Shown here: positions 21,501-49,192 of the stretch, one piece after another
How positions within the stretch are numbered: position 1 is the stretch's first letter
Layout of the letters: the number at the start of each line of letters is the position of its first letter
Virus record (IMG/VR): IMGVR_UViG_3300028883_000010
Location: 1 to 59,339 of that record
From: a virus
Taxonomy: Duplodnaviria > Caudoviricetes
Reading direction: 5' to 3' (one strand)
Length of the DNA: 59,339 nt
Notes under the pieces: generated by a model
Seen by the model: the letters and a program-made list of their open reading frames with translations, nothing else
Database searches by the model: none
What the model was told of the DNA's origin: nothing
Position numbers and translations under genes: made by a program

Positions 21501-24500
21501 CGCCTGGACACCCGGGGAGGTTCAGGCCGCCCGGTACGACCTGAGCAAGCATATCAAGGAAATCAATTACGAACAGGATACCGACGGGTCCGACAATTAC
21601 GACCTCCAGGCGATAGGCCATGACGGTAAAGAGGCCTTTTCCGAGGAAGACATCACCATCGCCCGTATCGAAGAACTGGTCGGAAAAGAAATTGCCCAGA
21701 AAATCCAGTCCGGTGAAGGCCGCGACGATTCGAGCGAGTACCGGAGTTGGCGTTCTCTTTCTGGTCTTGATCTGAAAGTCGGCGGCGAAGGCATGAGGGA
21801 ATTCTATGACAAGATCCTACCCGCCGAGGTCAATAAATTCTTTGGTAAGAAAGCTTGGGGCAAGGCCCGGGTGGGGACGACCGAGGTCATAATCCCCAAA
21901 GCGCCGAAACTCCCGCCAACGCATAAACCATACCCCCTTGAGGTGTGGTCTCTACCCATAACCCCCGAAATGAGAGCTATGGCCCTGTTCGAGGGTATGC
22001 CGACCTTTGCCGGGGTGCCTAAGAAATCGGTAAAGGCCTATAAGCTGTTCCGGACCCTGAAAAGCAAGCCCGGTGAGCTATTCCCCCTCTTTATCGGTAA
22101 AACAAAGCCCGTCGCGGTAGGCAAATGGGTTGACGGGGAGTTCATCCCCACCAAAGGCTTTGCACAGCGCCCGGGATGGCACGCCGGCGCTCTGCCGATC
22201 GCTCCGCATTTGCGGCAGAAGGCAACCGGCAAAATTGCGCCTGATCGGGTATGGGCGGAAGTCGAAATGCCAGCGGACAAAGATTGGCAGCAGACAGCCG
22301 ACCAGAGCCCGACCCGGGACATCCGGGACCAAATCCCCGAAGATGGCCATTATCGATTCAAAACCAGCAAGCTGCAGGGCGGCGCCTGGATGATCGGCGG
22401 CGGAGTCAAGGTCAATCGGATCTTAACCGACTCCGAAGTTGCACAGGTGCTGCGCGAGGCTGGATTCGCAGACGACGAGATCACAAACGAACTGCATGAC
22501 CCGAAATCCTTAGACGAGGCCCCGACTTTTTCCCGCCCAGGCCCCCAGAAGGTTTCAGACGTGCTGCCCGCGGAAGTTGCCAGGCGCATGGCCGCGGCCA
22601 AGGGTGTTGACAAGACCCGGTTCATGGACCGTCTGAAAGCTGCCGGCCGCAAGATCAAAGAGGAGGCCGCCCACTTCCCGGGGCTCACCCGGATAGAGGA
22701 CGTCAATCAGCGGGCCGTTTACAAGGAGATCCTGCGGCAGCATCAGGAAATACCGAGCAAGGCCCAGGACGCGGCCGCCCGGGCCATCAAGGGCTTTCTG
22801 GCAGACCTGACGCCCGAGGAATACGATATGTATTCACTCCGGATCATTCTTGGCGACGAAATGCGGTGCATTGAAGACGGGCAGCGCACAGAAAAGAACC
22901 TGCCATTTGGATTCAAATCGTTTGCCGAGCTTGGCAATAGTTTTGATGGCCTGAACAGCATCATCAACCATAACCCCAGGGTAAAAAAGGCCCTGGCCAA
23001 ACGGAAGGCTTTTCAACGCGATTTGGCACAGAGCCTGGTTGACATGCAGGTCTTGAAACCGGAAATTCTCAAATCGGACGAATATTTCCACCACCAGGTA
23101 CTTGAGTACTGGAATGCAAAGGAGGCGGAATTCAAAGGCATCGGTGTTTCGTCCAGTGACGCCCGGTCTCACTGGCGGCCCTGGATGGCCAGCCGGAAGG
23201 ACAGCGCCAAGGATTACAACACGGAATATGCAGAGGCCGAGCTGATGACAGTGGCCCAGATGATTGGCCAGGTTGAAACGGCAAAGAGCCTGCGGCGTCT
23301 ACGGCAGGAATCCGACATTCTCGGCGACCTGAATTCGATTGCCAAACAGAATAACCATCAAGCCGTCTGGGATGCGTTCCAGTTCAACCCGGCGACGTCA
23401 GACCCCAAAGACGATCCATTTTTACCCTACCGGCAGGCCATCGCCATGGGCATTCAAAACCTGGTGAAGATGGCCGGCAAGGAACAACTTGAATATGACA
23501 GCGAGTTTCAGGACGTTGTTGACGATCTGATGGACCAATACTATGCCGGCAAGGATGAGGAATACGATTACCCTGGCAAGATCATGGACTCCGGCCGTTT
23601 CTTTCATTTTCTGAGTCACCAAATCAATGCCAAGCTCAACGGGTCCGGGCACGCGGCCACCATCTTCAAGGGCATCAAAAGCCGCGAACAGTTTACCAAG
23701 GATGTTTTGGGAGACGCCTTCCAGACCGGTCTGGACATCATCCCCGAGGGATACACCCGCTGGCAGCCGGACAAAAACAAGGGCTGGTTCTGGACAAACT
23801 CCATTGCCGACAACGTCCTTGAAAAAGTTGTGTCCGGTGAAAAATCCCTGGAGGATAAAGACGTTCGTAAGGTCCTGGCCAAGGGCCGGAGCGTTTACTG
23901 GGTAGTGCCCGAGGGCCTGGCCGATACCATGGACAATTTCCGGCCGGTCCAAAAGGAAGGCATGTTCGGAAACATGCTGACGAACACCATGCAGGCATGG
24001 AAACAGTACATCCTGATGAACCCCCTGTCGGTGGTCAAATACAACGTCAACAATATGTCCGGCGACATGGACGCGGTCCTTGCCTGCGATCCTCAGATAA
24101 TGAAGTACGCCAAAAAGGCGCTTTCCGACCTGCGGCCATGGATGAAGCACGATCCGGCAGCCAGCCGGGCCCTAGACGAAGCCCGGGACCTTGGCGTCAT
24201 TGGCAGCGGGTTTTCCGTCCAGGAGGTTGAAGACACCCTCAAGGTTCTCGGGACCGATCGACTTTTGAATGACGTCTTTCTCGGAAAAAGCCCGGGGCTC
24301 ACTCAGAAATATTGGACAAGCGTCAAAACTTTGACGACCCTGCGGGAGAACATGCTTCGGCTGGCCGCCTTCCGGTATTTTCAGGATGCCATCAAAAATC
24401 GGGAGCGCGGGACCCTGAAAAATTACGGGGCCTCGAATCCCAAAGAGGTTGACGCCCTCATCAGAAACGGCATGACCAAGGATGCCGCCGCCAAGCTGGC

Positions 24501-25569
24501 CCGGGAACTTCTGGGGGACTACGGCGCCATTTCCCGGCATGGCGAATATCTCAGATCCCATATGATCCCCTTTTATAGCTGGCTGGAAATCAACACTCCT
24601 CGCTATGTCTATATGATGCGGAATCTGAAATACAATTCCGGCGAGGTCACCGGCGGCAAGGCCCGGATTGCCGGGACCCTGGCCAAACGGGGCAGCGTGT
24701 TTGCGCTCAAAGCGGGCATGCTGTTTGCGGCCGTGAGCCTTTATAACGCCGTCGTCTGGCCGGAGGAGGAGGAGGAACTCGGGGAGGCCGGCCGCCGGCA
24801 GCTGCATATTATTCTTGGTCGGCGGGCGGACGGATCCATTATCACCCTTCGGTTTCAGGGGGCCTTGTCAGATGCGCTTTCCTGGTTCGGCGCCGAGGAT
24901 TTTCCGAATGACGTTCGAGAGGTCACCCAGGGCAAGGCTTCCATAGGCGACAAACTCAAAGAGGCGTCAAAGGCCGTTGCAAACAAGGGCCTGCAGGGAT
25001 TCCGGCCGGATGTGAAAATCTTATTTGAAAGCCTCACCGGGAAAAAGCTTTATCCGAATGCGTTTTCCCCGCGGCCGGTCCGGGATAAAGTCGAAAACAT
25101 CCTATCAACGGTCAAGCTGAACCTGCCCTATCAGTGGGCGATGGGCAGACCGCACCGGGGCTCCAGTGTCCCGGAACAGCTGGCCAACGATTTGACGAGT
25201 ATCCTGCTTTACACGACCGAGCCAGGGGTACAGGCTTATTACGATGCCCGCCGGATGGTATTTGACTGGCAGGATAAAAAGGGCATTGAAAAGAACTATG
25301 GGCAGCCGACCAGCAAGGGAAACGCCCTGTACTACTACAAACAGGCCATGAAATATGGCGACCTGCGGGCGGCCAAAAAATACCTGAAAGAATATCAGAA
25401 GCTCGGCGGCACAAAGACCGGCCTGAAACAGTCTATCCGGATGATGCACCCGCTTTCCGGAATCAAACAGACACAGCGGGCCGCATTTGTCCGCGGGCTG
25501 TCGGCAAAAGAGCGGGCCACAGTGGAACGCGGTATCACCTGGTACCGAAAAACATACATGAAGAATTAA
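9526..25569 (+). CDS. Giant polyvalent/DarB-like internal virion protein (2H phosphoesterase, GGDEF-like, N6-MTase, Strawberry-notch helicase, zincin peptidase, LPD38-like C-terminus)
   Basis: 5347 aa; HVT (12295) and HAT (12520); SGDEF (12997); EPSAG and NPPF (15199); GDGTGVGKG, DESH, QGLGRTHRSNQ; HEFVH (19903); LEEIQSDW; AGGAG SD. Confidence 0.85.
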   Translation: MGYPSTDDLFAQDLETISSDFARLTGKTDSSQEARPADLTPAEAADHQFFSETSSKYRQLTGQEGDPFVPDSQKSREQLAKENMETRSEFTRNLLSGIDDTQGLLYGAAGLVGKAFHSDTLRDWGFENYKRNIEEASLNPSTFNSVSEVDWTSPGDVGTWFAGVIGKLTPTMAEIMAASTIGTVIAPGAGTVTGAFSRGIIKKAMRNKVAKAMESKAVQAVAAKSGEAAARKAAERLVAKEVGGNIGLVLGSTALEAGGMWAEGAEEFGVENSNEWTAAALGLLSGATELVAPSGTFVRRALGLKEVTRGITKETAKKLVQRAGSGQFIKAMIKAVPGTMAKEGTQEFVQEFISTLNMFVQDPEEKLFSPENIHRYIDSAAAGAAAGVLFGLGEGYSGHKSRLNEARDILARRQAAADAEEDADIAAAEAAENGPAAGKTDDINAPANPEAAANEFTDEELAAAAAARAEGKTADARAAMDQANEVMQAKQAQLDNLSRFKNPSKKQQALIKKLKKELNANYGSPDAMIINSAEESARAYEDQLSESQKVVTRQKTKDAIEAIMQTTGKSAQQAAQDIKNGAEIHWNRMVRKGAPDAKKFQEERPDLVSLIDGLRNAPSREAAEEAIKNHKLDEIRDNVGGRLTEASSEALTQVRQQYEHEGRSDLVAMIDSELSTRNIATALSPKNNKERFVTLGGAIRAMGGINPAGLKSDYLAQYKDAGKAKLFNKGGVEIEKAQTGLVRAGWMLPSEDLAGILTHNPDALKRGKLDAEPKTKNQKAAAAEIDESTNVDVEAPPDYDKEGAYKKELAGDLAEGTEATMVIDGQWDKYKVVENDPLGDGVTLQDGKQITIPAGKEVEILVSDIKGIEATENERDQVHDYSSTQVDIPGPAADEIRELGQLIPDEELYTDPKDPSYGREEKPHVTVKYGVHSADPKSIESALAGVGPFKVTMGKVSIFESDDYDVVKVDVESPELRALNKKIAESTSVTDTFPDYHPHATIAYVKKGEGQKYVGENSLEGKEITMNALTFSGKDGKESVFDLTERRRAAGKPKAGEQRSGNDRRQDTEYRKRIDEMTHDEAIAELKKDSTGLTNLLSKRAYEEDQNKKPIQVMFDMDGLGYINDHVEGGHSLGDKAISLFGRAIEKSSLGKDGVHFSGDEFGTQAVSLDEVETAKAEIRAFLEARPLEIIIDDVKYHHVLQFSTGTGDTLKNADKNLIARKGEKEREGTRPAKGSGLAAITRIDRGRGEGDVSQTGGSGTPGETAEAEPGKEGVAPEPPAPADPREKFTQDIERTGFAIDPKGRSYKIMQSDAGGFYVRITEDGFRTDLGGDPRGGGWTLGEAQAKAIDRAFPAKPAKPTKKEKALADYKAYVDSLTDEQREAVKDHTPEEPASPASQILKIKKMLANLKAPENVESAWDSQTPESRGMIAEMLGMVAAGSPSSHYTEIAFKNLSDIDKEVITKAKDQWEGRTFSRIAIGDNVQPRKGSEVPKSMAGAVTHIKRDYKTGQEKIKTENSGNLYFHNYDLEKVKRKKTPAEIEAELDDFFKDERVPVGSVRKAWDRLPYDARLKAMEAINAPSGIHEYVASREWADIGPETQRRLARDRDKWMPTQEPAGISIDDENAEKVGKDWDKELTKYGRRQVALKMGWNSSSAERIAKTLWQHLTDAAKKVLIRSHEKWAPTVKDKTPDHGKPGASEKLSFFIGKQIAEGKTTSWQALFKEADKAFGGTQAAGAYTPKDAYDAMELAVNRFISKRPNLYSPDTIFEVVDAQKTITRLQNLISLLPTQTKRTREMDQFQQFSTPPGLAYAAAWAARPTAKDTVMEPSAGVGGLAVFGKTAGAKTIVNELSPRRAELLKLMGFDRVFTENGEQLNNILPADVKPTVVLMNPPFSATAGRTQKNNTMNGARHIEQALARLAPGGRLVAIVGRGMADDRPSFKKWWTRMKAKYNVRANIGISGKEYAKYGTTFDNQILVIDKDGPTNGNIVTGFVEKFKDLPAKLWEVRNDRPAIDQEGQSSSPQSEDTDVTTQGGNPPADGSGPGPESAGLGTGKGPDNGGRTGGLESGNESANNESGSSGTDGTVKSGRNDDSSKHRPDKDRGGNGRGDSVSPGINDKELSLDELSDLFDEVAAEEGLIEKPTEAPAPPTSKGKPTLKGAATHAGKGAKKGLEAVADILKGLNQTGAIGDNLPPLIHPEAYAQAKEHLAESYNEFVAAGNEIKEWIRYALKRLTELGAPVGMSKNWILNFYAKDRPAPPEKPAETGVENVENKAEGKLTDSLYEVYRPRAAIAGSRQHPTPLVESAAMAATQAPPINYKLSISKVAIEGDPADPSKGISDIQLEAIAYAGAAHEKILPSGERKGFFIGDGTGVGKGRQISGIIWDNWNKGRKKAVWISEKWSLLKDANRDLTNVGWKEGPDLLFSQKDTDVGNAIKKKEGILFTAYSTARGGFDRIRDDISEHDTIAARRQDNDMSIRINQIIKWCGKDFDGVIAFDESHNMANAAPTKGTRGTKAASKQALAGIYLQKKLPKARVVYVSATGATEVENLVYARRLGLWGAETPFRSARDFVSKIAAGGVAAMEMVAGNMKSLGLYLARSLTYDGVKYDRMTHKLSDAQAKKYNELAQAWQIVLQNINEAVELTGCSKGQAAMSQFWGAHLRFFNQIITTMEMPSVIKAVKKDLAEGRTAVLQLIDTNEAAQNRALASLQQGQELEDLDITPRNDLIAYLENGFPVQEYETVTDEHGHEVKQPVVDSEGKPVLNAEAVQMRDDLILRIMSIKMPNGPLDYLLNEIGHENVAEVTGRSRRLEPDPETGRLKIVRRTPKHSEAETEEFDAGKRRVLIFSEAGATGRSYHADRTIENQELRRHYLVQPGWRADKAVQGLGRTHRSNQAQPPEFTLCTTDLKAQARFLSSIARRLDQLGALTRGQRQTGSQGIFQARDNLENAYARDALKTLLEDIHAGDVPGITVDDVREQMGIDLEAGDTLPDVATTQFLNRMLSMTIDMQNLTFDAFTSRMDRIIQAHSDAGTLDVGIETITGTSVRQIDSQVIRTDETGAETKYVQLDVDNPAAINDFDSIAEMFAGRGGFVRNLKSGKVWRTSPERDRTTSTGEVVGYRMLISPGNTHQRIDVNKLTPDKYEPLSKVEAQAYWEAEYEALPKVTTDKYHIITGAILPIWDRLGGKATIYRFQTDDGSRFLGRAIPQAQLQATMRSLDIEAGKVKYTGKQVVDAALTQGTKFSLEHRWFIEPVMVSGDQRIELKGPDYDDLDWMDRLGIINERIGWQARYFVPTDKRAAGIIDDVINRHPVIAIESGKRGGANMRLDSDTTFSRPSPSETDTTNKRIDEYGGRPISKETSPSQPGKVTENSKKLHETIAKLFDHLPKNTFTEVAADDVGDPSTSFARRLADIYGKKISFFHNAHPETFRFDGVSTGPLKGTVFVNADSKKPHLVIAGHEFVHEMRRDQPELYREFARTMEGMLKNFTDFKAYFDSLTTRDGTGKLSDDRIFEELLADFVGEQMMTKKFWRDFSQGKPSLFEKIATMFMNFLDKVLSQIKVSKGSEQYFNDLERARKAAAGAMSEYATRQAAGQGRNKTALSNEIADVWHSQMEGALAQKLPGKGSPAQFKQMIQAWAKKGQIKAEELEWSGLLDWLDNGLYEKRLDDLTGELTVRQFNEKGDNHWQAQAKKAAQKVSKTEVMDFLKSNRLQVKEINRGGPDPYTRTAQDWRRYLVDEMYVREAEAEDMTDQEIYGFVGEEISAGTIHNTRYENYQEPGGRNYRELLITLPPKTPAAVTAYHKALQDMAKKYGADYLELASFGHARENLFKRMPTLEVADFREIEAAYLKARNEFEGDNYQSGHWSEKNVLSHVRFNERTDADGARVLFLEEIQSDWHQAGRKEGYAKDITGWSAVRTGRKNERGRAEWTVKNPDGDVQGTVFAIREQGAIRRVAKAPVNAPPDAPWKKTWPIKTFQRMVRYAAENGFDKIAWTPGEVQAARYDLSKHIKEINYEQDTDGSDNYDLQAIGHDGKEAFSEEDITIARIEELVGKEIAQKIQSGEGRDDSSEYRSWRSLSGLDLKVGGEGMREFYDKILPAEVNKFFGKKAWGKARVGTTEVIIPKAPKLPPTHKPYPLEVWSLPITPEMRAMALFEGMPTFAGVPKKSVKAYKLFRTLKSKPGELFPLFIGKTKPVAVGKWVDGEFIPTKGFAQRPGWHAGALPIAPHLRQKATGKIAPDRVWAEVEMPADKDWQQTADQSPTRDIRDQIPEDGHYRFKTSKLQGGAWMIGGGVKVNRILTDSEVAQVLREAGFADDEITNELHDPKSLDEAPTFSRPGPQKVSDVLPAEVARRMAAAKGVDKTRFMDRLKAAGRKIKEEAAHFPGLTRIEDVNQRAVYKEILRQHQEIPSKAQDAAARAIKGFLADLTPEEYDMYSLRIILGDEMRCIEDGQRTEKNLPFGFKSFAELGNSFDGLNSIINHNPRVKKALAKRKAFQRDLAQSLVDMQVLKPEILKSDEYFHHQVLEYWNAKEAEFKGIGVSSSDARSHWRPWMASRKDSAKDYNTEYAEAELMTVAQMIGQVETAKSLRRLRQESDILGDLNSIAKQNNHQAVWDAFQFNPATSDPKDDPFLPYRQAIAMGIQNLVKMAGKEQLEYDSEFQDVVDDLMDQYYAGKDEEYDYPGKIMDSGRFFHFLSHQINAKLNGSGHAATIFKGIKSREQFTKDVLGDAFQTGLDIIPEGYTRWQPDKNKGWFWTNSIADNVLEKVVSGEKSLEDKDVRKVLAKGRSVYWVVPEGLADTMDNFRPVQKEGMFGNMLTNTMQAWKQYILMNPLSVVKYNVNNMSGDMDAVLACDPQIMKYAKKALSDLRPWMKHDPAASRALDEARDLGVIGSGFSVQEVEDTLKVLGTDRLLNDVFLGKSPGLTQKYWTSVKTLTTLRENMLRLAAFRYFQDAIKNRERGTLKNYGASNPKEVDALIRNGMTKDAAAKLARELLGDYGAISRHGEYLRSHMIPFYSWLEINTPRYVYMMRNLKYNSGEVTGGKARIAGTLAKRGSVFALKAGMLFAAVSLYNAVVWPEEEEELGEAGRRQLHIILGRRADGSIITLRFQGALSDALSWFGAEDFPNDVREVTQGKASIGDKLKEASKAVANKGLQGFRPDVKILFESLTGKKLYPNAFSPRPVRDKVENILSTVKLNLPYQWAMGRPHRGSSVPEQLANDLTSILLYTTEPGVQAYYDARRMVFDWQDKKGIEKNYGQPTSKGNALYYYKQAMKYGDLRAAKKYLKEYQKLGGTKTGLKQSIRMMHPLSGIKQTQRAAFVRGLSAKERATVERGITWYRKTYMKN
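13163..13351 (+). CDS. Possible nested (+1 frame) small protein overprinted at the end of the GGDEF-like domain
   Basis: AGGAG 12 nt upstream; RQLRELIEAGGKVTSVKLEGVELLE is protein-like; host frame becomes a Gly/Ser linker with A/T-ending codons. Confidence 0.35.
   Translation: MRIKTLSPEKAKKNEKAPDRPKVLDSRQLRELIEAGGKVTSVKLEGVELLEKPPKQSPEKKE
15554..15892 (+). CDS. Nested (+1 frame) 112-aa helical protein overprinted in the linker between MTase and helicase
   Basis: GGAGGT-N5-ATG; MTDLQSIRKANLHPLNQKILTLLRKEG...VLNLLDWALEKGLI...AEEMAEEIAYLLELMTKN; host frame is low-complexity G/S/N/D across exactly this span. Confidence 0.7.
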   Translation: MTDLQSIRKANLHPLNQKILTLLRKEGIPPRTDRVQVLNLLDWALEKGLITEEEPEVWSLATSLPIMNLDPAELMERLNPEETMTAQSIGRIKTAEEMAEEIAYLLELMTKN

Positions 25570-28358: not shown

Positions 28359-29393
28359 TCACACCATTTTCCCCATTTCATCCTCGACCACCTGGTCATA
28401 AATTTCGGCATAAATCTGAGTTGTCCGGATGTCTGAATGGCCCAGGATTTTCTGGATGATTTCCAGCTTAATTCCCTTTTCAACCATCCGGGTTGCCGAC
28501 GTATGGCGGAGGCTGTGAAAGCTGTATCGATGGCTATCGAGTTTGCAGGCCACCACGATCTTATGCGTTTCCCGGCTTAGATAATCTTTGTGGTGCCGAG
28601 CGAACACCGGGCCGAGGTCTTTTGAATCCCCCATGGCCTCGACGGCCTCTTTCAATAACGGGATGTTTCTTTCCTTGTCACCTTTGCCAACAATTCTGGC
28701 CCGGCCGTGTACCGCCCCCCTGGGCTCGTCATAAATAGTGACGTTCTGCCAGGTTAAATTCAGGCACTCTTGACGCCGGCAGCCGGTATAAAGCGCAAAG
28801 GTGATATAGCGCCACATTTCCGGGTGTTTTTCCTGGGCATAGGCAAGGATCTTATCCATGTGGTTTGCCGGAACTACCTTTGGCTTGCGCTTTGGGGTTT
28901 TGACCTTTGGGATTTTCGGCAGGCGTTCGGCATACCCCAGGGTTACCGCCGTGTTGAGCGCGGCCTTGATATGTCTCAGATAGGTTCTGACGCTATGGCC
29001 GGAGAGCCCCCGGGAAAGGCAGGCGTCCTTGAACTTGATCAAATCACGATCGTTGATAGCCCGGACGGCCCGCTTGTGGCCGATGACATCCCCCAGGGAC
29101 CGGAGGGCCAGCTCATCCATTCTGAGGGTGTCGGCGCTCAGGTCTGTACGGCCCGCCTTTTCGATGTAATCGGTTTTAAAATCAATCAGGGTTATCCGCT
29201 GTCCCTGATCCAGTTCGGCTACCCTGGACTTGTGCCATTTGCGCTCCATGACGCGCAAAAGCTCTTTAGCTTTTTTAAAATCCTTGGTTTTGAGGGTTCT
29301 CAGCTTGCCATTGGGGAAACGCCGGCAGCGGGGAAAACGGGCATAATAGGTGCCGTATTCTGGGTGTTTCCAGAGGTTCATGGGGGTAATCAT
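28359..29393 (-). CDS. int: Tyrosine integrase
   Basis: YTGCRRQE, VGKGDKER, HSLRH, ILGHSDIRTTQIY catalytic residues. Confidence 0.95.
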   Translation of the reverse strand: MITPMNLWKHPEYGTYYARFPRCRRFPNGKLRTLKTKDFKKAKELLRVMERKWHKSRVAELDQGQRITLIDFKTDYIEKAGRTDLSADTLRMDELALRSLGDVIGHKRAVRAINDRDLIKFKDACLSRGLSGHSVRTYLRHIKAALNTAVTLGYAERLPKIPKVKTPKRKPKVVPANHMDKILAYAQEKHPEMWRYITFALYTGCRRQECLNLTWQNVTIYDEPRGAVHGRARIVGKGDKERNIPLLKEAVEAMGDSKDLGPVFARHHKDYLSRETHKIVVACKLDSHRYSFHSLRHTSATRMVEKGIKLEIIQKILGHSDIRTTQIYAEIYDQVVEDEMGKMV

Positions 29394-38273: not shown

Positions 38274-38921
38274 TTAGCTGCTTATTATAACAATTATTTT
38301 ATCCAAATTATGCGGCGCATGGCCATGGTTGAAATATAGTGGTTTTTGAACCAGGCTGAATGGATGTAAAATATCTTGGTTTGTACCTCGTTCAATCCAG
38401 GTGATGTGTGACAGCTCGCCATCATTAAAAATGATCTTGTCTCCGTTTTTTATTTCCTCCGGATCTGCTTTGCGGGCAATCAGAACATCACCGCTTTTAA
38501 ACATGGGAAACATCCTATCCCCAACAATTCGGATGCCATAATATAATGAAATGTCTTTTTTGGGGAAATCATGAACCAGGCTTTTTATATCGATAAGACC
38601 GAAGTCATGATCATTATCAAAATGGTAATGCCTTTTAAATTGGTTGTTTGACGTTTCTGCCACGATTCTTACTTGATCCTCCCTGCTGCCAAGCAATTCA
38701 TCTCGGGATACATTTACACCGTATCTTTTAAACATTTTGACGACTCGGTCGACTTGATCCATCTTCCAGTGGTGTTGACCTTTTAGGAGTCTGTAAAAAT
38801 GCGATGGGTCAAAGCCAGCTGCTTCGGCAAACGATTTTCGCGTAACGCTGCCTTGAATTTTGGAAAGCGACCTTACCACGCGATTTCCTATCCGTCTATC
38901 GTTTTCGGATAGTTTTTTCAT
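38274..38921 (-). CDS. CI-like repressor (XRE HTH + degenerate S24 domain)
   Basis: TRKSFAEAAGFDPSHFYRLLKG; IRIVGDRMFPMFKSGDVLI. Confidence 0.85.
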   Translation of the reverse strand: MKKLSENDRRIGNRVVRSLSKIQGSVTRKSFAEAAGFDPSHFYRLLKGQHHWKMDQVDRVVKMFKRYGVNVSRDELLGSREDQVRIVAETSNNQFKRHYHFDNDHDFGLIDIKSLVHDFPKKDISLYYGIRIVGDRMFPMFKSGDVLIARKADPEEIKNGDKIIFNDGELSHITWIERGTNQDILHPFSLVQKPLYFNHGHAPHNLDKIIVIISS

Positions 38922-38961: not shown

Positions 38962-38991
38962 TTGACAAAAGGACAATTTGTCCTATATGAT
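38962..38991 (+). promoter_or_regulatory. PR-like promoter with operator in the spacer
   Basis: TTGACA-18-TATGAT; AGGACAATTTGTCCT at 38970-38984. Confidence 0.8.
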
Positions 38992-43712: not shown

Positions 43713-44177
43713 GTGGCAAGTAGAGCCCGGATGAAAACATTTACCGCACTGGCATTTGCTCGCGGATTGGCACTGACTTTTGAGTCTGTTTACAGAACAA
43801 AAGAGCGGAACAAAACCATTCTCGCGATACTGGCCCGCGTTAAATCTGCATCAGACGCGGCGTTTGATATGTGGCCCCACGACCTGACGCAAAAAGACAT
43901 CAGGATTCTCAGCGCAAAAATAGAGGCGCTCAGGCAGGAACAATTCAGCGAGGGGAAACCTGCAACGGTTTTGATTTCCTTTACCGAAGGTGTCGTCGGC
44001 GATGTTCGGGACCACATTAAAAACAGCCGACGCGGCAAGGCGCTTGACGAGTTGATCGCGGCGCTTGAGGCCTGGCGGAAATATTATGACCGCAAAGGCG
44101 ACAAGTTCGATGAATACGACGAGGCCAACGAGGGGGTCAAAGCCTGGGATAAAAAAATAGAGGCGGAAGCGGCATGA
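43713..44177 (+). CDS. Hypothetical helical protein
   Basis: AAGGAG SD before GTG, 154 aa. Confidence 0.6.
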   Translation: MASRARMKTFTALAFARGLALTFESVYRTKERNKTILAILARVKSASDAAFDMWPHDLTQKDIRILSAKIEALRQEQFSEGKPATVLISFTEGVVGDVRDHIKNSRRGKALDELIAALEAWRKYYDRKGDKFDEYDEANEGVKAWDKKIEAEAA

Positions 44178-44557
44178 AACAGACCGTATTCATTCCCGGA
44201 CCGCTGCCGGGCCTCAACGAGATCATAGCGGCTTCAAAGCGGCGTCTCAAAAAAAACGGCCGCCGGCGGGTGTTTGAGTTTTCACAGATGAAAGCGGACT
44301 GGGACATGCGCGTTTCTATTGCCTGTAAAATGGCCGGCATGGTCCCCATGAAGCGTGCCGACATCGGCATTATCTGGGTTGAAAAAGACCGCCGGCGGGA
44401 TCCGGACAACATCATGGCCGGGAAAAAGTTTATTCTCGATGGTCTGGTAAAAGCCGGGATTTTAAAAAACGACGGGTGGCGCCAGGTCGGCAGCTTCACG
44501 GAGATCGTTGAAGTCGGGGAGCTGCCCGGCGCCCACGTAACGTTGATCGGAGAATGA
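44174..44557 (+). CDS. RusA-like Holliday junction resolvase
   Basis: PGPLPGLNE, RRRDPDNI...KFILDGLV.AGIL.NDG. Confidence 0.85.
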   Translation: MKQTVFIPGPLPGLNEIIAASKRRLKKNGRRRVFEFSQMKADWDMRVSIACKMAGMVPMKRADIGIIWVEKDRRRDPDNIMAGKKFILDGLVKAGILKNDGWRQVGSFTEIVEVGELPGAHVTLIGE

Positions 44558-44766: not shown

Positions 44767-45121
44767 AACTGAACATGAAATTGAGGTCAACAAATTCATA
44801 AAGCATGCGGAAGCTGTGGCCAATGATGCTGTCAAAAGAAAAGATTATACTGTCCCAAGTGAATATCGACGCGACTGGGGGCGGGTTTTCATAAAAGAAA
44901 TGGACCGCTTGACGGCTGCGGCTGGATTGCGGGTGACCAACGATCCAGCAGGGAAACGGGCATATCATAAAGCAAAAAAGAAGCAGGCCCTCGAAGGTGT
45001 AACAAAGATCAAGGACCTGCTTTCAAAAGTTGTGGAAAAAAATGATCGTCACGGCGTCGCTGATGAAGTCGATTCCGCCATTTCTGCTCTGGGCGCCTAT
45101 AAAACGTTATTGGTGGCTTAG
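44741..45121 (+). CDS. Hypothetical protein
   Basis: 126 aa, last gene of the rightward early operon. Confidence 0.5.
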   Translation: MKRTPKRIETEHEIEVNKFIKHAEAVANDAVKRKDYTVPSEYRRDWGRVFIKEMDRLTAAAGLRVTNDPAGKRAYHKAKKKQALEGVTKIKDLLSKVVEKNDRHGVADEVDSAISALGAYKTLLVA

Positions 45122-45295
45122 CGCGATTAACCTTTTAAGGGCCGCAGCTGGTATAGCCCTGCGGCCCTGTTCCCAGTTTTCAATCGTTCTCGGGCTCCGG
45201 GCCACAAGCTCGGCCAGATCTGCCACCGACCATCCTTTTTTCTTTCGGAGTTTTTTGACGGCCGCGGCCGGGTCTGTTTCAAATTCTTTTTTCAA
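45107..45295 (-). CDS. XRE HTH protein (Aca-like)
   Basis: VKKLRKKKGWSVADLAELVARSPRTIENWEQGRR; AAGGAGG SD; last gene of the counter-oriented operon. Confidence 0.85.
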   Translation of the reverse strand: MKKEFETDPAAAVKKLRKKKGWSVADLAELVARSPRTIENWEQGRRAIPAAALKRLIALSHQ

Positions 45296-45309
45296 AGGTT
45301 CCCCTCCTT

Positions 45310-45828
45310 TTAGGCCGCCAGGTAATCAGCCCGGACCTGGGCGGCTGTTTTTATGATTGCACATTCTGTTTCGACCACGCGGCCGGCAATTGCCGGCGTT
45401 GAAAAGATCCATTGCCCCGGCATGCCTTCGCTGATTGCATATCCGCAGTACACAGCTTTGTAATTATCAAGGGTCATTTTTTTGCGTTTACCATTTTGCC
45501 ACTGATGGAAACAAACAATATCTCCATCGAGGCTTTTAAATGTGCCGGCGAGCTCGAACCCTGATCCCTTGTAAAACGTTAAATCGACAAAACCCGCGGA
45601 TGTGCGTTTACCCCCCAATTTAACAAGGATTTCTCCGACCTGTAACATGCGGCCGTCCTGCAGCTGTACCGGAGTTGTGCTTAGCCTGGGCTTTGTGTGG
45701 AAGCCGAAGAACCAGCACTCCCATACTGAAAACTTGTCGTAAGCAAATTCTGTGTAAACCGGGACCCGCCGCGGTTTCCTGGCCGGCACGCTGCCGGCGG
45801 GAAGTGGCTTGTATTCGTGTTTATTCAT
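45310..45828 (-). CDS. Hypothetical protein (candidate anti-defence)
   Basis: 172 aa within the operon. Confidence 0.6.
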   Translation of the reverse strand: MNKHEYKPLPAGSVPARKPRRVPVYTEFAYDKFSVWECWFFGFHTKPRLSTTPVQLQDGRMLQVGEILVKLGGKRTSAGFVDLTFYKGSGFELAGTFKSLDGDIVCFHQWQNGKRKKMTLDNYKAVYCGYAISEGMPGQWIFSTPAIAGRVVETECAIIKTAAQVRADYLAA

Positions 45829-45845
45829 TGATCACCATCCCCCTT

Positions 45846-46604
45846 TTATAAATAAGTCGTGTCGTTTTCAAATTCCTGGATGAAAAAACAGTCACTTCCC
45901 ATGCCCGGGATGGTGTACGGGAACGGCTTTTCCATGGGGATTTCATCCGCATGCTTCATGATTGCAGCAGATAGGTCATTTCGCAGAGCGGGGGGCATTT
46001 TGCCGGCATCGTCCCACTTCACGGCGTCATCAAAACCTTCTATGTGGCACCATGCGTCATATTCGCCGGCGGAGTCCCACACATGATACCAGACCGAATT
46101 ATCCCTGACCCAGTAAAAAGACGCTTCGTCGTTGACCGCCTTGACGGCTTTCCAAAATTCATCCGGTTTAAAAGGGGCATCGAAAATTTTTCCATCGATT
46201 TCAACGTCTGACCCTTCCACAATCGATGAAACCCGGACGCCGGACAGGTCCAGTTTTTCAATCGGGGTTTTGTCGGGGAGGTCCTGGCCATACACCCATT
46301 CCCCATCGATTCGGAATCCGACCATGGGGCCGCAGGCCGTACCTTTATATAAGGCCCGGTAAAATTTCCAGGCATTTTCGGCTATGTTTTTCACCAGGGC
46401 CACGATGCTATCAAACGGATCGCTTTCCGGGTGCATTGTGTGCTGCCATTCATGCCCGCAGTCCTCACAATGCAGGCCGACCGTGCCGGCCCGCTGGTTG
46501 GTCCCGGATTCTTCCAAGATGTCATTGCCGCACTTCGGGCACTTGGCGCCCATTTCTCCCCAGTCCGGTGTATTGTCCCAAGGACATTCTTCATATGGAT
46601 TCAT
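45846..46604 (-). CDS. Acidic Zn-ribbon protein (candidate anti-defence)
   Basis: AAAGGAG SD; CPKC...CEDC; LYKGTACG...SIVEGSD...EFW...VNDEASFYW. Confidence 0.7.
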   Translation of the reverse strand: MNPYEECPWDNTPDWGEMGAKCPKCGNDILEESGTNQRAGTVGLHCEDCGHEWQHTMHPESDPFDSIVALVKNIAENAWKFYRALYKGTACGPMVGFRIDGEWVYGQDLPDKTPIEKLDLSGVRVSSIVEGSDVEIDGKIFDAPFKPDEFWKAVKAVNDEASFYWVRDNSVWYHVWDSAGEYDAWCHIEGFDDAVKWDDAGKMPPALRNDLSAAIMKHADEIPMEKPFPYTIPGMGSDCFFIQEFENDTTYL

Positions 46605-46648
46605 GGTTACTCCTTTGCTGTGCCCCGGCCGGAGCCGGGGCGGTTGAT

Positions 46649-46903
46649 TTACATCCAATCAAACGGCTTGCCGTTTTTCGAATATTGCAGCTCGGTGCAT
46701 CCCAGGCCGCCCATGCCGAAGTCATCGAGGGGGTCGAAGTCGCATTCCATCATACGGCCCTCACAGTAGAGCTGCCGGTCATCGTCATACATTTTGAAAC
46801 GGACCGGCATGTTCTCCGGTTTGAGATCCGCGGGGAAGCTGCGGGATTTAATACCCACCAATTTACTGTCAATGTGGTCCTTGGTGATGATCCAGTGATT
46901 CAT
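46649..46903 (-). CDS. Small acidic protein (candidate anti-defence)
   Basis: AAAGGAGG SD; FKMYDDDRQLYCEG...PLDDFG...GCTELQY. Confidence 0.7.
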   Translation of the reverse strand: MNHWIITKDHIDSKLVGIKSRSFPADLKPENMPVRFKMYDDDRQLYCEGRMMECDFDPLDDFGMGGLGCTELQYSKNGKPFDWM

Positions 46904-46920
46904 GGTCGAGCCTCCTTTTT

Positions 46921-47112
46921 TTAACAGTCGTAAGCCTTGCAATAAATGTCCTCATAAACTTCTGAAACCAAAAAATCGAACAGGGTTTCATCGTTGTAAT
47001 TCCGCCATCCGTACGCTGTTTTAAGGCAGCTGAACATTTCGGCGGCCGGTACGTCCCCGCGGTATTCTCGCCAGGCCCAGGCAATTTCTTTTTTTGTGCT
47101 TTTTGTTTCCAT
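46921..47112 (-). CDS. Small protein (candidate anti-defence)
   Basis: AAGGGGG SD; 63 aa. Confidence 0.6.
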   Translation of the reverse strand: METKSTKKEIAWAWREYRGDVPAAEMFSCLKTAYGWRNYNDETLFDFLVSEVYEDIYCKAYDC

Positions 47113-47143
47113 AGGTCCCCCTTGATTTGGTGGTTTTTGGTTT

Positions 47144-47197
47144 ATTTTATACGTCATTGACGTATGTTGTCAAGTGTTAAATACGCCTATGGCGTAT
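47144..47197 (-). promoter_or_regulatory. Strong leftward promoter with twin palindromic operators
   Basis: Minus strand TTGACA-18-TAAAAT; ATACGTCATTGACGTAT (47149-47165) and ATACGCCTATGGCGTAT (47181-47197). Confidence 0.8.
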
Positions 47198-47215
47198 TTT
47201 TTTACATAACGGAAT

Positions 47216-47285
47216 ATGACCCGGTTTGACACGACATGACCCGATTTGACACGGCATGACCCGATTTGGCACGGCATGACCCGGA
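47216..47285 (+). repeat. 3.5 x 20-bp tandem repeat (7 x 10-bp phased wTGAC[C/A]CG)
   Basis: ATGACCCGGT TTGACACGAC ATGACCCGAT TTGACACGGC ATGACCCGAT TTGGCACGGC ATGACCCGGA. Confidence 0.9.
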
Positions 47286-47333: not shown

Positions 47334-47918
47334 ATGGCAAAGCGGAAATTTATAGATTGGGACAGCATTAAGCCCTTGTGGTGTTCGGGCATGTCAAACT
47401 GTGAGATCAGCCGGCAGTATGCTGCGGATCATGTTCATAGCCAGACCTACCGACAGACAGTCACAGAGGCCGCCATCCGAAAACAAGCCAAGGCCAAAAA
47501 GTGGCAGCGGAACATTGCCAATAAGGTCAAAGATCGGGTTCGAGAAAAGTTAGTTCGAAGCGAAGTTCGAACCTCGAACAAAAAGGGGATGTCCGAGGAT
47601 GAGCTCATAGAGGCAGCAGCTGAAAAGCCGGTTGCGGTCCGTATGCTGCAGCGGGGCCGGGCTCAGGAACTGGCACAGACTGGGGATGACCTCCAGCAGG
47701 GGATTAATTATCAGCTCGACAAGTGGCGCGACGAAAAGACCGGCAAAGTCATTCTCCCGTTTATTCAGATGTACGAAGTGGTCAAGACCTATGCCAAGCT
47801 GGTGGCCGCCCGGAAGAACCTCCAGGAAATGGAGTCCGACGCCTTCGGGTTGAACGATAAGGATGACCAGGGGAAAAAGCGGATCCGGATCACCAGGTTC
47901 AAGGAGGATGCCGATTGA
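47334..47918 (+). CDS. terS: Terminase small subunit
   Basis: IDWDSIK...EISRQY...TEAAIRK.AK..KW.R N-terminal HTH; directly upstream of terL. Confidence 0.75.
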   Translation: MAKRKFIDWDSIKPLWCSGMSNCEISRQYAADHVHSQTYRQTVTEAAIRKQAKAKKWQRNIANKVKDRVREKLVRSEVRTSNKKGMSEDELIEAAAEKPVAVRMLQRGRAQELAQTGDDLQQGINYQLDKWRDEKTGKVILPFIQMYEVVKTYAKLVAARKNLQEMESDAFGLNDKDDQGKKRIRITRFKEDAD

Positions 47919-49192
47919 CAGTAGCGACGGCCCAACCATACGACGTTGAGATTGAAATCTCTGAGGGGATTTACAACTCCGTCTATATTCCGTACCTGGA
48001 GCTCACCAGGCCAACGGAAATCTTTTATGGTGGGTCATCCTCTGGCAAATCCTATTTCCTGGCGCAGCGGGCCATTGAGGACCTGCTCGCCGGCGGTCAC
48101 AACTATCTGTGCTGCCGGAAACGCGGGAACAGCCTGGGCAAATCGGTTTTCAATGAATTGGTCAAGGCCATCACCCGCCTGAAAGCTACACATCTGTTTA
48201 ATATCGTCCCGTCCCAGGGGCATATTACCTGCGTCAACGGGTACCAGATCCTTTTCAGTGGTCTGGATGACGTTGAAAAGATCAAGTCCATCACGCCAAA
48301 GCTCGGGGTCATCACCGACATATGGCTTGAGGAGGCCACAGAGGCCGCCCTGTCCGACGTCAAGCAGCTGCGAAAAAGGTTGAGGGGGAAGGCCACCTAT
48401 GATGGCCGGCGCATCAGGAAACGCATCATATTAAGTTTCAACCCCATTTACCGAACGCACTGGATTGTCAAAGAGTTTTTCGACCCGATCGATTGGAAGG
48501 ACAATCAAAAGCATTACCTGGACGATTCCATTTCCATTTTAAAGACCACGCACCTGGACAACGAGTATCTTGATGAGGACGATCACAATGAGCTTGAAAA
48601 CGAGACGGATAAATATTGGTACCAGGTCTACACTCTTGGAAATTGGGGTATCCTTGGCGACGCAATTCTCACAAACTGGCGAACCGCTGATTTGTCCGGA
48701 CTCGCCCATACATTTGACCATATCCGGAACGGCCTTGACTTCGGATACTCCGCCGACCCGAACGCCTTCGTCAGACTCCATTATGACCGTCGGCATAAAA
48801 AAATCTGGATCTTTAACGGGTGGCACGAGCGGGGCCTTACGAATCCGCAAATAGCCAAACGGCTGAAACCGATCATCGGGCATGAATGCATCTTCTGTGA
48901 CAGCGCAGAGCCCAAATCCATTCAGGAATTGAAAGACGAAGGCATAGACGCCCGTCCGGTAAAAAAGGGGCCGGATTCACTCCTATACAGCATCAAATGG
49001 TTACAGAAACACGAAATCATCGTTGACGAGAGCCTTCAGGGTGTCGTCAACGAGCTGAACACCTGGCAATGGAAAAAGGATAAGGACGGCAACAGCCTTC
49101 CGATTCCGGTTGATGCCGACAACCATTACATCGACGCCACCAGGTACGGCTGCGAGATCGAATATCTCGGCTTTTTCGGGGATGTCCTATGA
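47915..49192 (+). CDS. terL: Terminase large subunit (PBSX family)
   Basis: YGGSSSGKS, WLEEATE, SFNP, GLDFGY, CDSAEP, NHYIDATRY. Confidence 0.95.
   Translation: MTVATAQPYDVEIEISEGIYNSVYIPYLELTRPTEIFYGGSSSGKSYFLAQRAIEDLLAGGHNYLCCRKRGNSLGKSVFNELVKAITRLKATHLFNIVPSQGHITCVNGYQILFSGLDDVEKIKSITPKLGVITDIWLEEATEAALSDVKQLRKRLRGKATYDGRRIRKRIILSFNPIYRTHWIVKEFFDPIDWKDNQKHYLDDSISILKTTHLDNEYLDEDDHNELENETDKYWYQVYTLGNWGILGDAILTNWRTADLSGLAHTFDHIRNGLDFGYSADPNAFVRLHYDRRHKKIWIFNGWHERGLTNPQIAKRLKPIIGHECIFCDSAEPKSIQELKDEGIDARPVKKGPDSLLYSIKWLQKHEIIVDESLQGVVNELNTWQWKKDKDGNSLPIPVDADNHYIDATRYGCEIEYLGFFGDVL

Follow-up and report, generated by a model that had tools for sequence, protein, structure and literature searches.

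Operons under the control of Aca proteins are described as having a strong promoter furnished with inverted repeats and an HTH protein that acts as autorepressor (PMC13551039; PMC9765179); many of the genes in them are without annotation, and some are large (PMC13551039). The DNA analysed here, which we call the window, is the whole stretch of 59,339 nucleotides from a marine sediment metagenome and constitutes a complete 59-kb temperate phage. A search of sequencing runs listed one DNA run containing this sequence, a marine sediment metagenome that may be its source, and no RNA runs. The phage encodes an integrase and a CI-like repressor and bears a minus-strand cassette of five genes flanked by terS/terL and by the early-right operon, which ends with RusA followed by a 126-aa ORF (table 1). 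In the initial annotation this region had been described as a counter-oriented cassette between the early-right and late operons, with a near-consensus promoter, two related 17-bp palindromes (one in the spacer, one upstream), small-to-medium genes preceded by Shine-Dalgarno sequences, several of them acidic, and a final stand-alone XRE HTH. All these elements were recovered where they had been placed: each of the five ORFs has its Shine-Dalgarno sequence, and three of the four cargo proteins (genes 1-4) are acidic.

The resemblance of this cassette to acr-aca operons lies in the inverted repeats within and beside a strong promoter, in the short same-strand operon with a small HTH gene in last position, in the small and mostly acidic proteins without known relatives and in the temperate phage that carries it. 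The differences are that no Acr homologue was found, that gene 3 reaches 252 aa and that the cassette is counter-oriented to both neighbouring operons. The rules of AcaFinder call for genes on the same strand, gaps below 250 bp, an HTH gene under 150 aa and proteins all under 200 aa (PMC9765179); the intergenic gaps of the cassette (17, 44, 17 and 14 nt in gene order) and its HTH lie within the operon and HTH rule, whereas gene 3 breaks rule iv on protein size. Our preferred reading, held tentatively and with less than even confidence, is that of an immediate-early accessory operon autorepressed by its HTH protein and driven by host RNA polymerase, the cargo of which would act on the host.

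Table 1. Features of the cassette and its flanks, in the direction of cassette transcription (positions in the window).
Feature	Position	Strand	Details
terS/terL	47334-49192		beyond the promoter side of the cassette
Palindrome 2	47181-47197		ATACGCCTATGGCGTAT; 17 bp; 8 nt upstream of -35; candidate second operator
Promoter, sigma-70 type	47144..47173	-	TTGACA 47173-47168, 18-nt spacer, TAAAAT 47149-47144; score 11/12
Palindrome 1	47149-47165		ATACGTCATTGACGTAT; 17 bp; fills promoter spacer and overlaps first base of -10; candidate primary operator
Gene 1	46921..47112	-	63 aa; acidic, pI 4.6; Shine-Dalgarno AAGGGGGA
Gene 2	46649..46903	-	84 aa; acidic, pI 5.0; phrog_12268, E 5.7e-9
Hairpin between genes 2 and 3	46621..46642	-	GC-rich, 8 bp; no U tract on mRNA strand
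Gene 3	45846..46604	-	252 aa; very acidic, net charge -26, pI 4.4
Gene 4	45310..45828	-	172 aa; basic, pI 9.4
Gene 5	45107..45295	-	62-aa stand-alone XRE HTH; TTG start; Shine-Dalgarno AAGGAGGGG
Intrinsic terminator (predicted)	44966..45022	-	14-bp stem 45022-44981, then CUUCUUUUUUGCUUU
RusA	44174-44557		early-right operon, near the 3' side of the cassette

The cassette promoter, from which transcription would start near 47137, is one of the two strongest of the genome: only this site and PR (38962-38991) score at least 11/12 in the whole window, the chance level being a mean of 0.39 and a maximum of 2 in 100 first-order Markov simulations. At the looser threshold of 9/12, promoter-like sites are not in excess in the cassette region (2 found vs 3.0 expected). 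PR shares the same design, with TTGACA, an 18-nt spacer and a palindrome within the spacer, but that palindrome, AGGACAATTTGTCCT, is unlike those of the cassette; control by CI or Cro is consequently unlikely here, and a dedicated regulator is needed. Each of the two cassette palindromes is perfect, their centres lie 32 bp apart, and they are private to this promoter within the phage, since their common pattern ATACGYCNNNGRCGTAT (ATACGYC-N3-GRCGTAT) matches exactly twice in the window, also with as many as two mismatches tolerated. With the same tolerance, two matches were obtained in 5 of 100 shuffles, and a search of IMG/VR for the two-palindrome pattern gave no match. As far as sequence can show, both palindromes occupy positions from which a bound repressor would obstruct RNA polymerase; gene 5, which encodes the sole DNA-binding protein of the cassette, is the candidate autorepressor.

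Two adjacent palindromic boxes at the promoter of a small XRE HTH protein are also found with the controller (C) proteins of restriction-modification systems, the gene for which normally comes first in the operon. In the cassette, by contrast, the HTH gene is last, endonuclease and methyltransferase genes are absent according to Pfam and NCBIfam, and the PDB match of gene 5 to C.BclI is weak and not significant (E 0.62).

Given the close spacing of the genes and the terminator that follows them, the cassette is best seen as a single transcript. The terminator, which overlaps the convergent 126-aa ORF towards the 3' end of the latter, folds with -22.9 kcal/mol (z -3.8), a stability reached by 0 of 200 shuffles. 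The 5' UTR, some 25 nt long, shows no structure (z +0.7), in contrast to the RNA motifs known from Aca1 and Aca2, a point against the preferred reading; the 70-nt region of the hairpin between genes 2 and 3 (-26.2 kcal/mol, z -2.7) is possibly an element of RNA stability or processing. Another hairpin introduces a different explanation, which we consider quite improbable, namely that the cassette serves the life cycle of the phage itself: The HTH and its palindromes would protect the late (terS) operon from early-right read-through or govern its timing, palindrome 2 would double as a plus-strand terminator, and genes 1-4 would be accessories of replication, recombination or packaging. Palindrome 2 with its flanking A/T runs does score as a plus-strand terminator-like hairpin (47179-47199 and then a T run; -11.4 kcal/mol, z -2.5) just upstream of the control region of the late operon, and the convergence of the cassette with the early-right operon, in which both the stop codons (45107-45121) and the terminator hairpins overlap, would suit such a function. 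However, any plausible terS promoter is more than 100 bp downstream of the palindromes.

The nature of gene 5 was confirmed by its matches to HTH_31 (E 1.3e-9) and HTH_3 (E 8.4e-8). It is a generic XRE protein with a single close homologue, at 54% identity, and no close relatives in IMG/VR. Comparison with solved structures and Pfam gave no assignment to a named Aca family: Aca2 structures match it at E 0.6 and DUF1870 does not match; no other chain named Aca appears among solved structures at E up to 5. Its top matches among solved structures are instead antitoxins, HigA-2 (E 1.5e-3) and HipB, and it also resembles the Y4mF and MqsA-family models of NCBIfam (E 7e-6, far below their cut-offs); in a Pseudomonas phage, a relative that follows a toxin carries the annotation of antitoxin. 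In HigBA and MqsRA systems, the toxin gene is first, the XRE HTH gene last, and palindromes lie in the promoter. These likenesses to type II toxin-antitoxin systems (HigBA, HipBA, MqsRA), namely the HTH gene in last position, the palindromes overlapping the promoter and the antitoxins nearest to the HTH, lend substance to the idea of a prophage moron that benefits the lysogen through toxin-antitoxin action, abortive infection or superinfection exclusion. In this scenario the effector would be gene 4, perhaps together with genes 1-3, gene 5 would serve as XRE antitoxin or autoregulator, and expression from the prophage would not depend on CI. Phage morons, such as lambda bor/lom, are independent transcription units between modules, and the cassette has indeed its own strong promoter, devoid of a CI/Cro-type operator, and its own terminator, is counter-oriented between lytic modules at the boundary of early and late genes, and is missing from the nearest relative of the phage.

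Several features, nevertheless, do not fit such a module, which we rate as unlikely. A typical toxin-antitoxin module has two genes and not five cistrons, the HTH here amounts at 62 aa to a bare domain without any extra toxin-binding segment, and no toxin family is matched. Moreover, the G+C content of the cassette (51.7%) equals in practice that of the phage genome (52.6%) and thus gives no sign of a recent foreign acquisition, and neither this lack of compositional deviation nor the dedicated autoregulator is moron-like. A modelled complex of the gene 4 and gene 5 products scored 0.00, which is evidence neither way. That the cassette is counter-oriented and has no CI operator would also suit a gene set expressed in the lysogen, an observation that counts against an immediate-early operon.

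No function could be assigned to any of the four cargo proteins: Searches of genes 1-4 in Pfam, PHROGs, NCBIfam and PADLOC yielded only a generic zinc ribbon and phrog_12268, a PHROG without function annotation; the latter corresponds to gene 2, which has weak relatives among hypothetical right-arm genes of mycobacteriophages. Gene 1 has no relatives in Pfam, PHROGs or NCBIfam and no solved structure by sequence; its matches to TFS/TFIIS were rejected because it has no cysteine pairs. Gene 3 combines an N-terminal CxxC...CxxC zinc ribbon (about residues 20-55) with a conserved domain of about 190 aa in which the motif SSIVEGSDVE is invariant. Its family is rare, with phage or metagenome members and no Pfam match, and close relatives were found neither in IMG/VR nor, by tblastn, in GenBank phages or PLSDB plasmids; one relative is present in a Thauera genome, and BFVD contains one probable, unnamed family member (A0A516MM50, E 9.9e-4, 25% identity over 123 columns). 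The similarity of the zinc ribbon to the Lar family (E 0.065) and to ECs_2282 (E 6.4e-5, below cut-off) was dismissed as generic. Structural comparison of gene 3 gave no convincing fold: The best Foldseek match in the PDB has E 0.045, and the best VIA-align Z of 6.0 remains below the level that the tool considers meaningful, as do the similarities of the middle domain to type III secretion chaperone/YbjN-like folds (Z 5.0-5.4) and of the C-terminal part to roadblock and CbeA/YeeU-like folds (Z 4-6). Its zinc ribbon could bind nucleic acid, a point in favour of the life-cycle role discussed above; it aligns weakly with that of NrdR (Z 4.3, rmsd 1.6 A over 40 residues).

Gene 4 belongs to a family that is very rare in our searches, with 58 relatives among 1.84 billion representatives, sharing the motifs GGxxTSAGF and TPAxAGRxVET. 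None of 41 sequences (gene 4 and 40 aligned relatives) has a family match, IMG/VR holds no close relatives, and tblastn found nothing in GenBank phages or in PLSDB plasmids. The gene-4 profile had no hit in 401 sampled Pseudomonadota genomes, nor in the Thauera genome that has the gene-3 relative, although neither result is proof of absence; such rarity would be unusual for a toxin-antitoxin family. The model of gene 4 is all-beta and very confident, with a pLDDT of 94.8, and its best matches in the PDB are at E 0.28 with Foldseek and only Z 3.8 with VIA-align (small beta-barrel/BAH/Tudor-like pieces), which makes the protein worth a structural look whatever its function. In the ESM Atlas, no usable match was obtained for gene 4 or for residues 62-252 of gene 3, the Atlas's own models being poor. 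An ADP-ribosyltransferase-like reading of the residues R...TS...E-T-E in gene 4 was abandoned, since the second Glu is not conserved and no such fold was matched. Both gene 3, for its 252 aa, and gene 4, basic and of 172 aa, would be atypical as Acr proteins, which counts against the preferred reading.

No likeness to known Acr, anti-defence, defence or toxin families was found in the cargo with Pfam, PHROGs, NCBIfam, PADLOC and PDB sequences, the last providing neither an Acr nor any solved-structure match. The initial remark that none of the genes is recognisable as a named Acr thus holds for Pfam, PHROGs, NCBIfam and PDB sequences, a coverage that distant or structurally unsolved Acr proteins might escape. 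Among 5027 PADLOC defence models, nothing in the cassette rises beyond chance (the best cargo match, at E 0.036, is to the zinc ribbon), and this speaks also against the moron reading.

The genomic context of the relatives indicates that the cargo is accessory and mosaic, in line with the preferred reading. None of 42 loci with gene-3 relatives also carries relatives of genes 1, 2, 4 or 5, and the phage records with gene-4 relatives have neither gene 2 nor gene 3. No HTH family is matched by any of 133 ORFs flanking gene-3 relatives, which leaves the anti-defence reading without guilt-by-association support. Beside gene-4 relatives, too, no HTH gene is immediately adjacent in three viral loci (a small sample with two distinct contexts), where these relatives lie within long same-strand early operons, contrary to what a toxin paired with its antitoxin would lead one to expect. 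The relatives of genes 3 and 4 occupy early or accessory regions of phages, next to ParB-like, Mu Gam-like, DUF932, SNF2, AAA/DUF2201 and methyltransferase genes. ParB-like, SWI2/SNF2 and methylase domains recur in phage conflict proteins (PMC5512222). The same neighbourhoods can be read as DNA metabolism (ParB-like, Gam-like, metallophosphatase/SbcD-like, helicase), as would befit replication or recombination accessories; yet Pfam and PHROGs place none of the cargo genes in a family of replication or packaging. Furthermore, the nearest relative, provirus G404 (94% complete, with the closest terS that has readable flanks), packages its DNA without the cassette, which therefore is not essential to that module. 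G404 has only plus-strand ORFs upstream of its terS, and relatives of genes 2, 3 and 4 are missing from it; in a second relative, the corresponding position is taken by another acidic ORF, likewise counter-oriented but different.

How would an HTH-autorepressed immediate-early operon, the reading that we prefer, work in the infected cell? Sigma-70 RNA polymerase would fire the near-consensus promoter upon entry of the phage DNA and perhaps also, at a low steady level, in the lysogen, producing a transcript of about 2.2 kb that spans genes 1-5 and ends at the hairpin 45022-44981. From it would come the three acidic products, the basic one and the 62-aa XRE HTH, a dimer of which would bind palindrome 1, which separates -35 from -10, and palindrome 2, located three helical turns farther upstream. 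Such binding would shut the promoter, thereby capping both the dose of the cargo and the transcription that runs head-on into the PR operon. Like that of acr-aca operons, the cargo would most likely target host functions, through either counter-defence or takeover of the host.

As to the acr-aca architecture proposed at first, its promoter, palindromes and last-gene HTH are all in place, but the same layout fits equally well an XRE-antitoxin operon or a moron cassette, which leaves the anti-defence reading plausible but unproven. For the four genes as new anti-CRISPR or anti-defence candidates, we found no direct evidence, and the cargo matches no known anti-defence family. A more specific version, a counter-defence operon under a previously unclassified Aca-type XRE repressor with genes 3 and 4 as two new families of anti-defence or host takeover, appears to us rather doubtful. 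Gene 3 would then contribute its domain with the SSIVEGSDVE motif and gene 4 a basic all-beta protein with a fold absent from the PDB, both families being scattered through the early regions of uncultured phages.

The practical value of the locus is limited by the many similar candidate operons already catalogued: Nearly 1900 genes, mostly unannotated, are predicted to be under Aca control (PMC13551039). If the circuit works as we infer, however, an unclassified pair of repressor and operator would join the Aca-like regulators that serve for guilt-by-association mining, and genes 3 and 4, members of rare and structurally unassigned families, would be flagged as candidates in the conflict between phages and their hosts.

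The best-supported part of our interpretation of the cassette, the five-gene minus-strand operon lying between the early-right operon and the terminase genes, is its regulatory circuit. The near-consensus promoter, the two palindromes, the Shine-Dalgarno sequences and the final stand-alone XRE HTH recognized in the initial annotation all held up. The promoter scores 11/12, and only one other site in the whole genome reaches at least this score, the early-right promoter PR (simulated mean, 0.39 sites); at a loose threshold of 9/12, the region has no surplus of promoter-like sites (2 vs 3.0 expected). Both promoters follow a common design, with a consensus -35 and, inside the 18-nt spacer, a palindrome (AGGACAATTTGTCCT in PR), and the cassette promoter is as strong as PR. 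Palindrome 1 fills the cassette spacer, palindrome 2 stops 8 nt short of the -35 on its upstream side, and 32 bp, or about three helical turns, separate the two centres. Their common pattern, ATACGYCNNNGRCGTAT, is unrelated to the PR palindrome and has no further match anywhere in the phage with up to two mismatches allowed; judging from their placement, these two private palindromes would exclude RNA polymerase from the promoter. The 5' UTR of about 25 nt is without structure.

Coordinates of the cassette and of other features of the phage
Feature	Position	Strand	Remarks
1327-aa protein	91-4071	plus	
5347-aa ORF	9526-25569	plus	27% of genome
Integrase	28359-29393	minus	
CI-like repressor	38274-38921	minus	
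PR promoter	38962-38991		TTGACA, 18-nt spacer, TATGAT; drives Cro-like gene divergent from CI-like repressor
RusA	44174-44557	plus	in early operon
Minus-strand hairpin	45022-44981	minus	
Hairpin plus U-rich tract	45022-44966	minus	
Plus-strand hairpin	45138-45168	plus	-25.5 kcal/mol for folded 71-nt fragment
Gene 5	45295-45107	minus	
Gene 4	45828-45310	minus	
Gene 3	46604-45846	minus	
Hairpin between genes 2 and 3	46621-46642		
Gene 2	46903-46649	minus	
Gene 1	47112-46921	minus	
Cassette promoter	47173-47144	minus	TTGACA-18-TAAAAT
Palindrome 1	47149-47165		
Palindrome 2	47181-47197		
Tandem repeats	47216-47283		
terS	47334-47918	plus	
terL	47915-49192	plus	

Gene 5 encodes a bare XRE HTH of 62 aa (HTH_31, E 1.3e-9). 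The promoter has the strength of PR, the two palindromes are private, and this terminal HTH is the sole regulator within the transcript; gene 5 probably autorepresses the cassette promoter. Aca proteins are described as working by such autorepression, and the operons that they control contain many unannotated genes, even large ones (PMC13551039). A search of 5.8 billion clusters gave one close homologue of gene 5 (54% identity). Among solved structures, the protein comes closest to the antitoxins HigA-2 (E 1.5e-3) and HipB; matches to Aca2 (E 0.6) and C.BclI (E 0.62) are much weaker. Its relatives in named phages occupy varied places: one in a Microcystis phage has a Cro-like position, and another, in Pseudomonas phage Shamal, belongs to an annotated toxin-antitoxin pair. 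These nearest matches to antitoxins, together with the similar layout of XRE-antitoxin operons (HTH gene last, palindromes in the promoter), count against a role of the cargo, genes 1-4, in counter-defence or host takeover. That the cassette is itself a toxin-antitoxin system or defence moron is rather unlikely, given that the HTH is a bare domain of 62 aa, that the gene-4 family is rare and that its members elsewhere are unpaired.

The five genes are separated by gaps of 17, 44, 17 and 14 nt and have good Shine-Dalgarno sequences. A plausible cassette terminator, a 14-bp hairpin with a U-rich tract behind it (-22.9 kcal/mol; none of 200 shuffles folds as well), is situated within the 3' end of a convergent 126-aa ORF. 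This ORF, ending at 45121, is the last member of the plus-strand early operon that includes SSB and RusA. The two convergent operons overlap at their stop codons (45107-45109 and 45119-45121), each having its terminator-like hairpin in the last gene of the other, and so close a convergence could permit antisense or collision effects. The overlap with the early operon, as well as a second role for palindrome 2, as plus-strand terminator ahead of the late operon, would suit a cassette serving the phage's own timing, which we regard as distinctly improbable. Genes 2 and 3 are separated by a GC-rich 8-bp hairpin that has a tetraloop but no U tract; it may be a sign that mRNA stability or processing differs along the operon. 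Between palindrome 2 and terS lie 3.4 tandem copies of the 20-bp unit ATGACCCGRTTTGRCACGRC, which has an internal 10-bp periodicity and is absent elsewhere in the genome (3 matches vs 0.03 expected); these may be terS/pac recognition sites or late-promoter activator binding sites. TTTGACA-type repeats also precede terS in a contig carrying a terS relative (L047, ~380-500).

The phage is temperate and tailed, and its IMG/VR record (59,339 bp) is entire, bounded by direct terminal repeats. The region occurs in a single sequencing run, from a marine sediment metagenome, and the closest named relatives of terL, in Marinitoga and Clostridium phages, show <50% identity. The 1327-aa protein has a Laminin_G_3 (E 4.9e-23) and a DUF2341 domain, and probably functions as a tail fibre or receptor-binding protein. 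The single 5347-aa ORF combines a Strawberry-notch-type helicase (AAA_34, E 1.8e-53; Helicase_C_4, E 1.2e-80) with a 2H phosphoesterase domain (2_5_RNA_ligase2, E 1.5e-11) that falls just below the cut-off of 27 for the Acb1 anti-CBASS model (25.3 bits, E 1.4e-5); most of its length is without annotation. It resembles the 'polyvalent proteins' reported in PMC5512222 and, as one of them, would represent a large counter-defence or early effector of the same phage.

What, then, could be the role of the cargo? Three of its proteins are acidic, in line with the initial annotation. For gene 1 (63 aa, pI 4.6), none of the family libraries searched gave a relative, and gene 2 (84 aa, pI 5.0) matches phrog_12268, a family without assigned function, and weakly some hypothetical genes in the right arm of mycobacteriophages. 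In gene 3 (252 aa, net charge -26), a zinc ribbon is joined by a conserved domain with an invariant SSIVEGSDVE motif; 14 of 167 candidate relatives reach E <=0.001, most of them missing the ribbon. Its AlphaFold model is good (pLDDT 83.7) and has no convincing PDB match (Foldseek best E 0.045; VIA-align best Z 6.0, under the tool's own noise guide). For gene 4 (172 aa, pI 9.4), a word-indexed search gave no relative and an exhaustive search of 1.84 billion representatives gave 58 at E <=0.001, with no Pfam family in any of 41 aligned members; its excellent model (pLDDT 94.8) predicts an all-beta protein, with a best PDB match of only Z 3.8. No cargo protein matched PADLOC defence models beyond chance, or solved structures by sequence profile.

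Relatives of gene 3 were located in one genome (Thauera) and 41 metagenome contigs, and relatives of genes 1, 2, 4 and 5 in none of these 42 loci (tblastn). Up to three ORFs per side were sampled at 40 loci, L010 and L041 being left out because a rough ORF caller missed their matching ORF, as were neighbours <55 aa or >1200 aa. The resulting 133 ORFs matched 22 Pfam families, including AAA_16 (4 members), DUF2201 with a metallopeptidase domain (3), ParB_N (2), GP88 (2), methyltransferases, SNF2, DUF932 and metallophosphatase, plus phage ATPase, ParB-like, helicase and NinI-like phosphatase PHROGs; a separate scan added a Mu Gam-like protein. Guilt by association gave no support: no HTH family appeared among these 133 ORFs, nor did any HTH gene directly adjoin gene-4 relatives in three IMG/VR contigs. 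The latter represent two distinct contexts, within long operons on a single strand that contain many small zinc-ribbon ORFs, with a metallophosphatase nearby in one case and genes 2 and 3 absent. The small to medium CxxC...CxxC ORFs surrounding gene-4 relatives (L048, 2241-5786; L050, 3565-4637) echo the ribbon fused to gene 3. In the Thauera sp. contig (L002, 2104-7068), the only gene-3 relative among species genomes, a 362-aa form with an N-terminal extension, adjoins an IS630-type transposase and is followed closely by a 125-aa ORF and an SNF2 helicase of 1113 aa that has a SWIM-like cysteine motif. A terS relative is present in two other phages. In the first, a provirus of 94% completeness (40% identity), every ORF upstream of terS lies on the plus strand and genes 2, 3 and 4 are missing; the second, a short contig (57% identity), carries a different acidic ORF, which is counter-oriented and diverges from terS. 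The G+C of the cassette equals the phage average. Taken together, these comparisons show that the cargo is accessory and mosaic, at a variable position.

Counter-defence or host takeover is a possible role for the cargo: the early-type promoter, the three acidic proteins, the rarity of cargo families restricted to phages and the neighbours of their relatives, domain types recurrent in phage conflict proteins (PMC5512222), speak for it, whereas the sizes of genes 3 and 4, their relatives' lack of HTH association and the absence of homology to any known inhibitor speak against it. The acr-aca-like operon initially proposed is partly supported, namely in its regulatory layout. We consider the cassette a new candidate HTH-autoregulated accessory operon in a phage, of a layout type already known, the most original elements of which are the fold of gene 4 and the conserved domain of gene 3.
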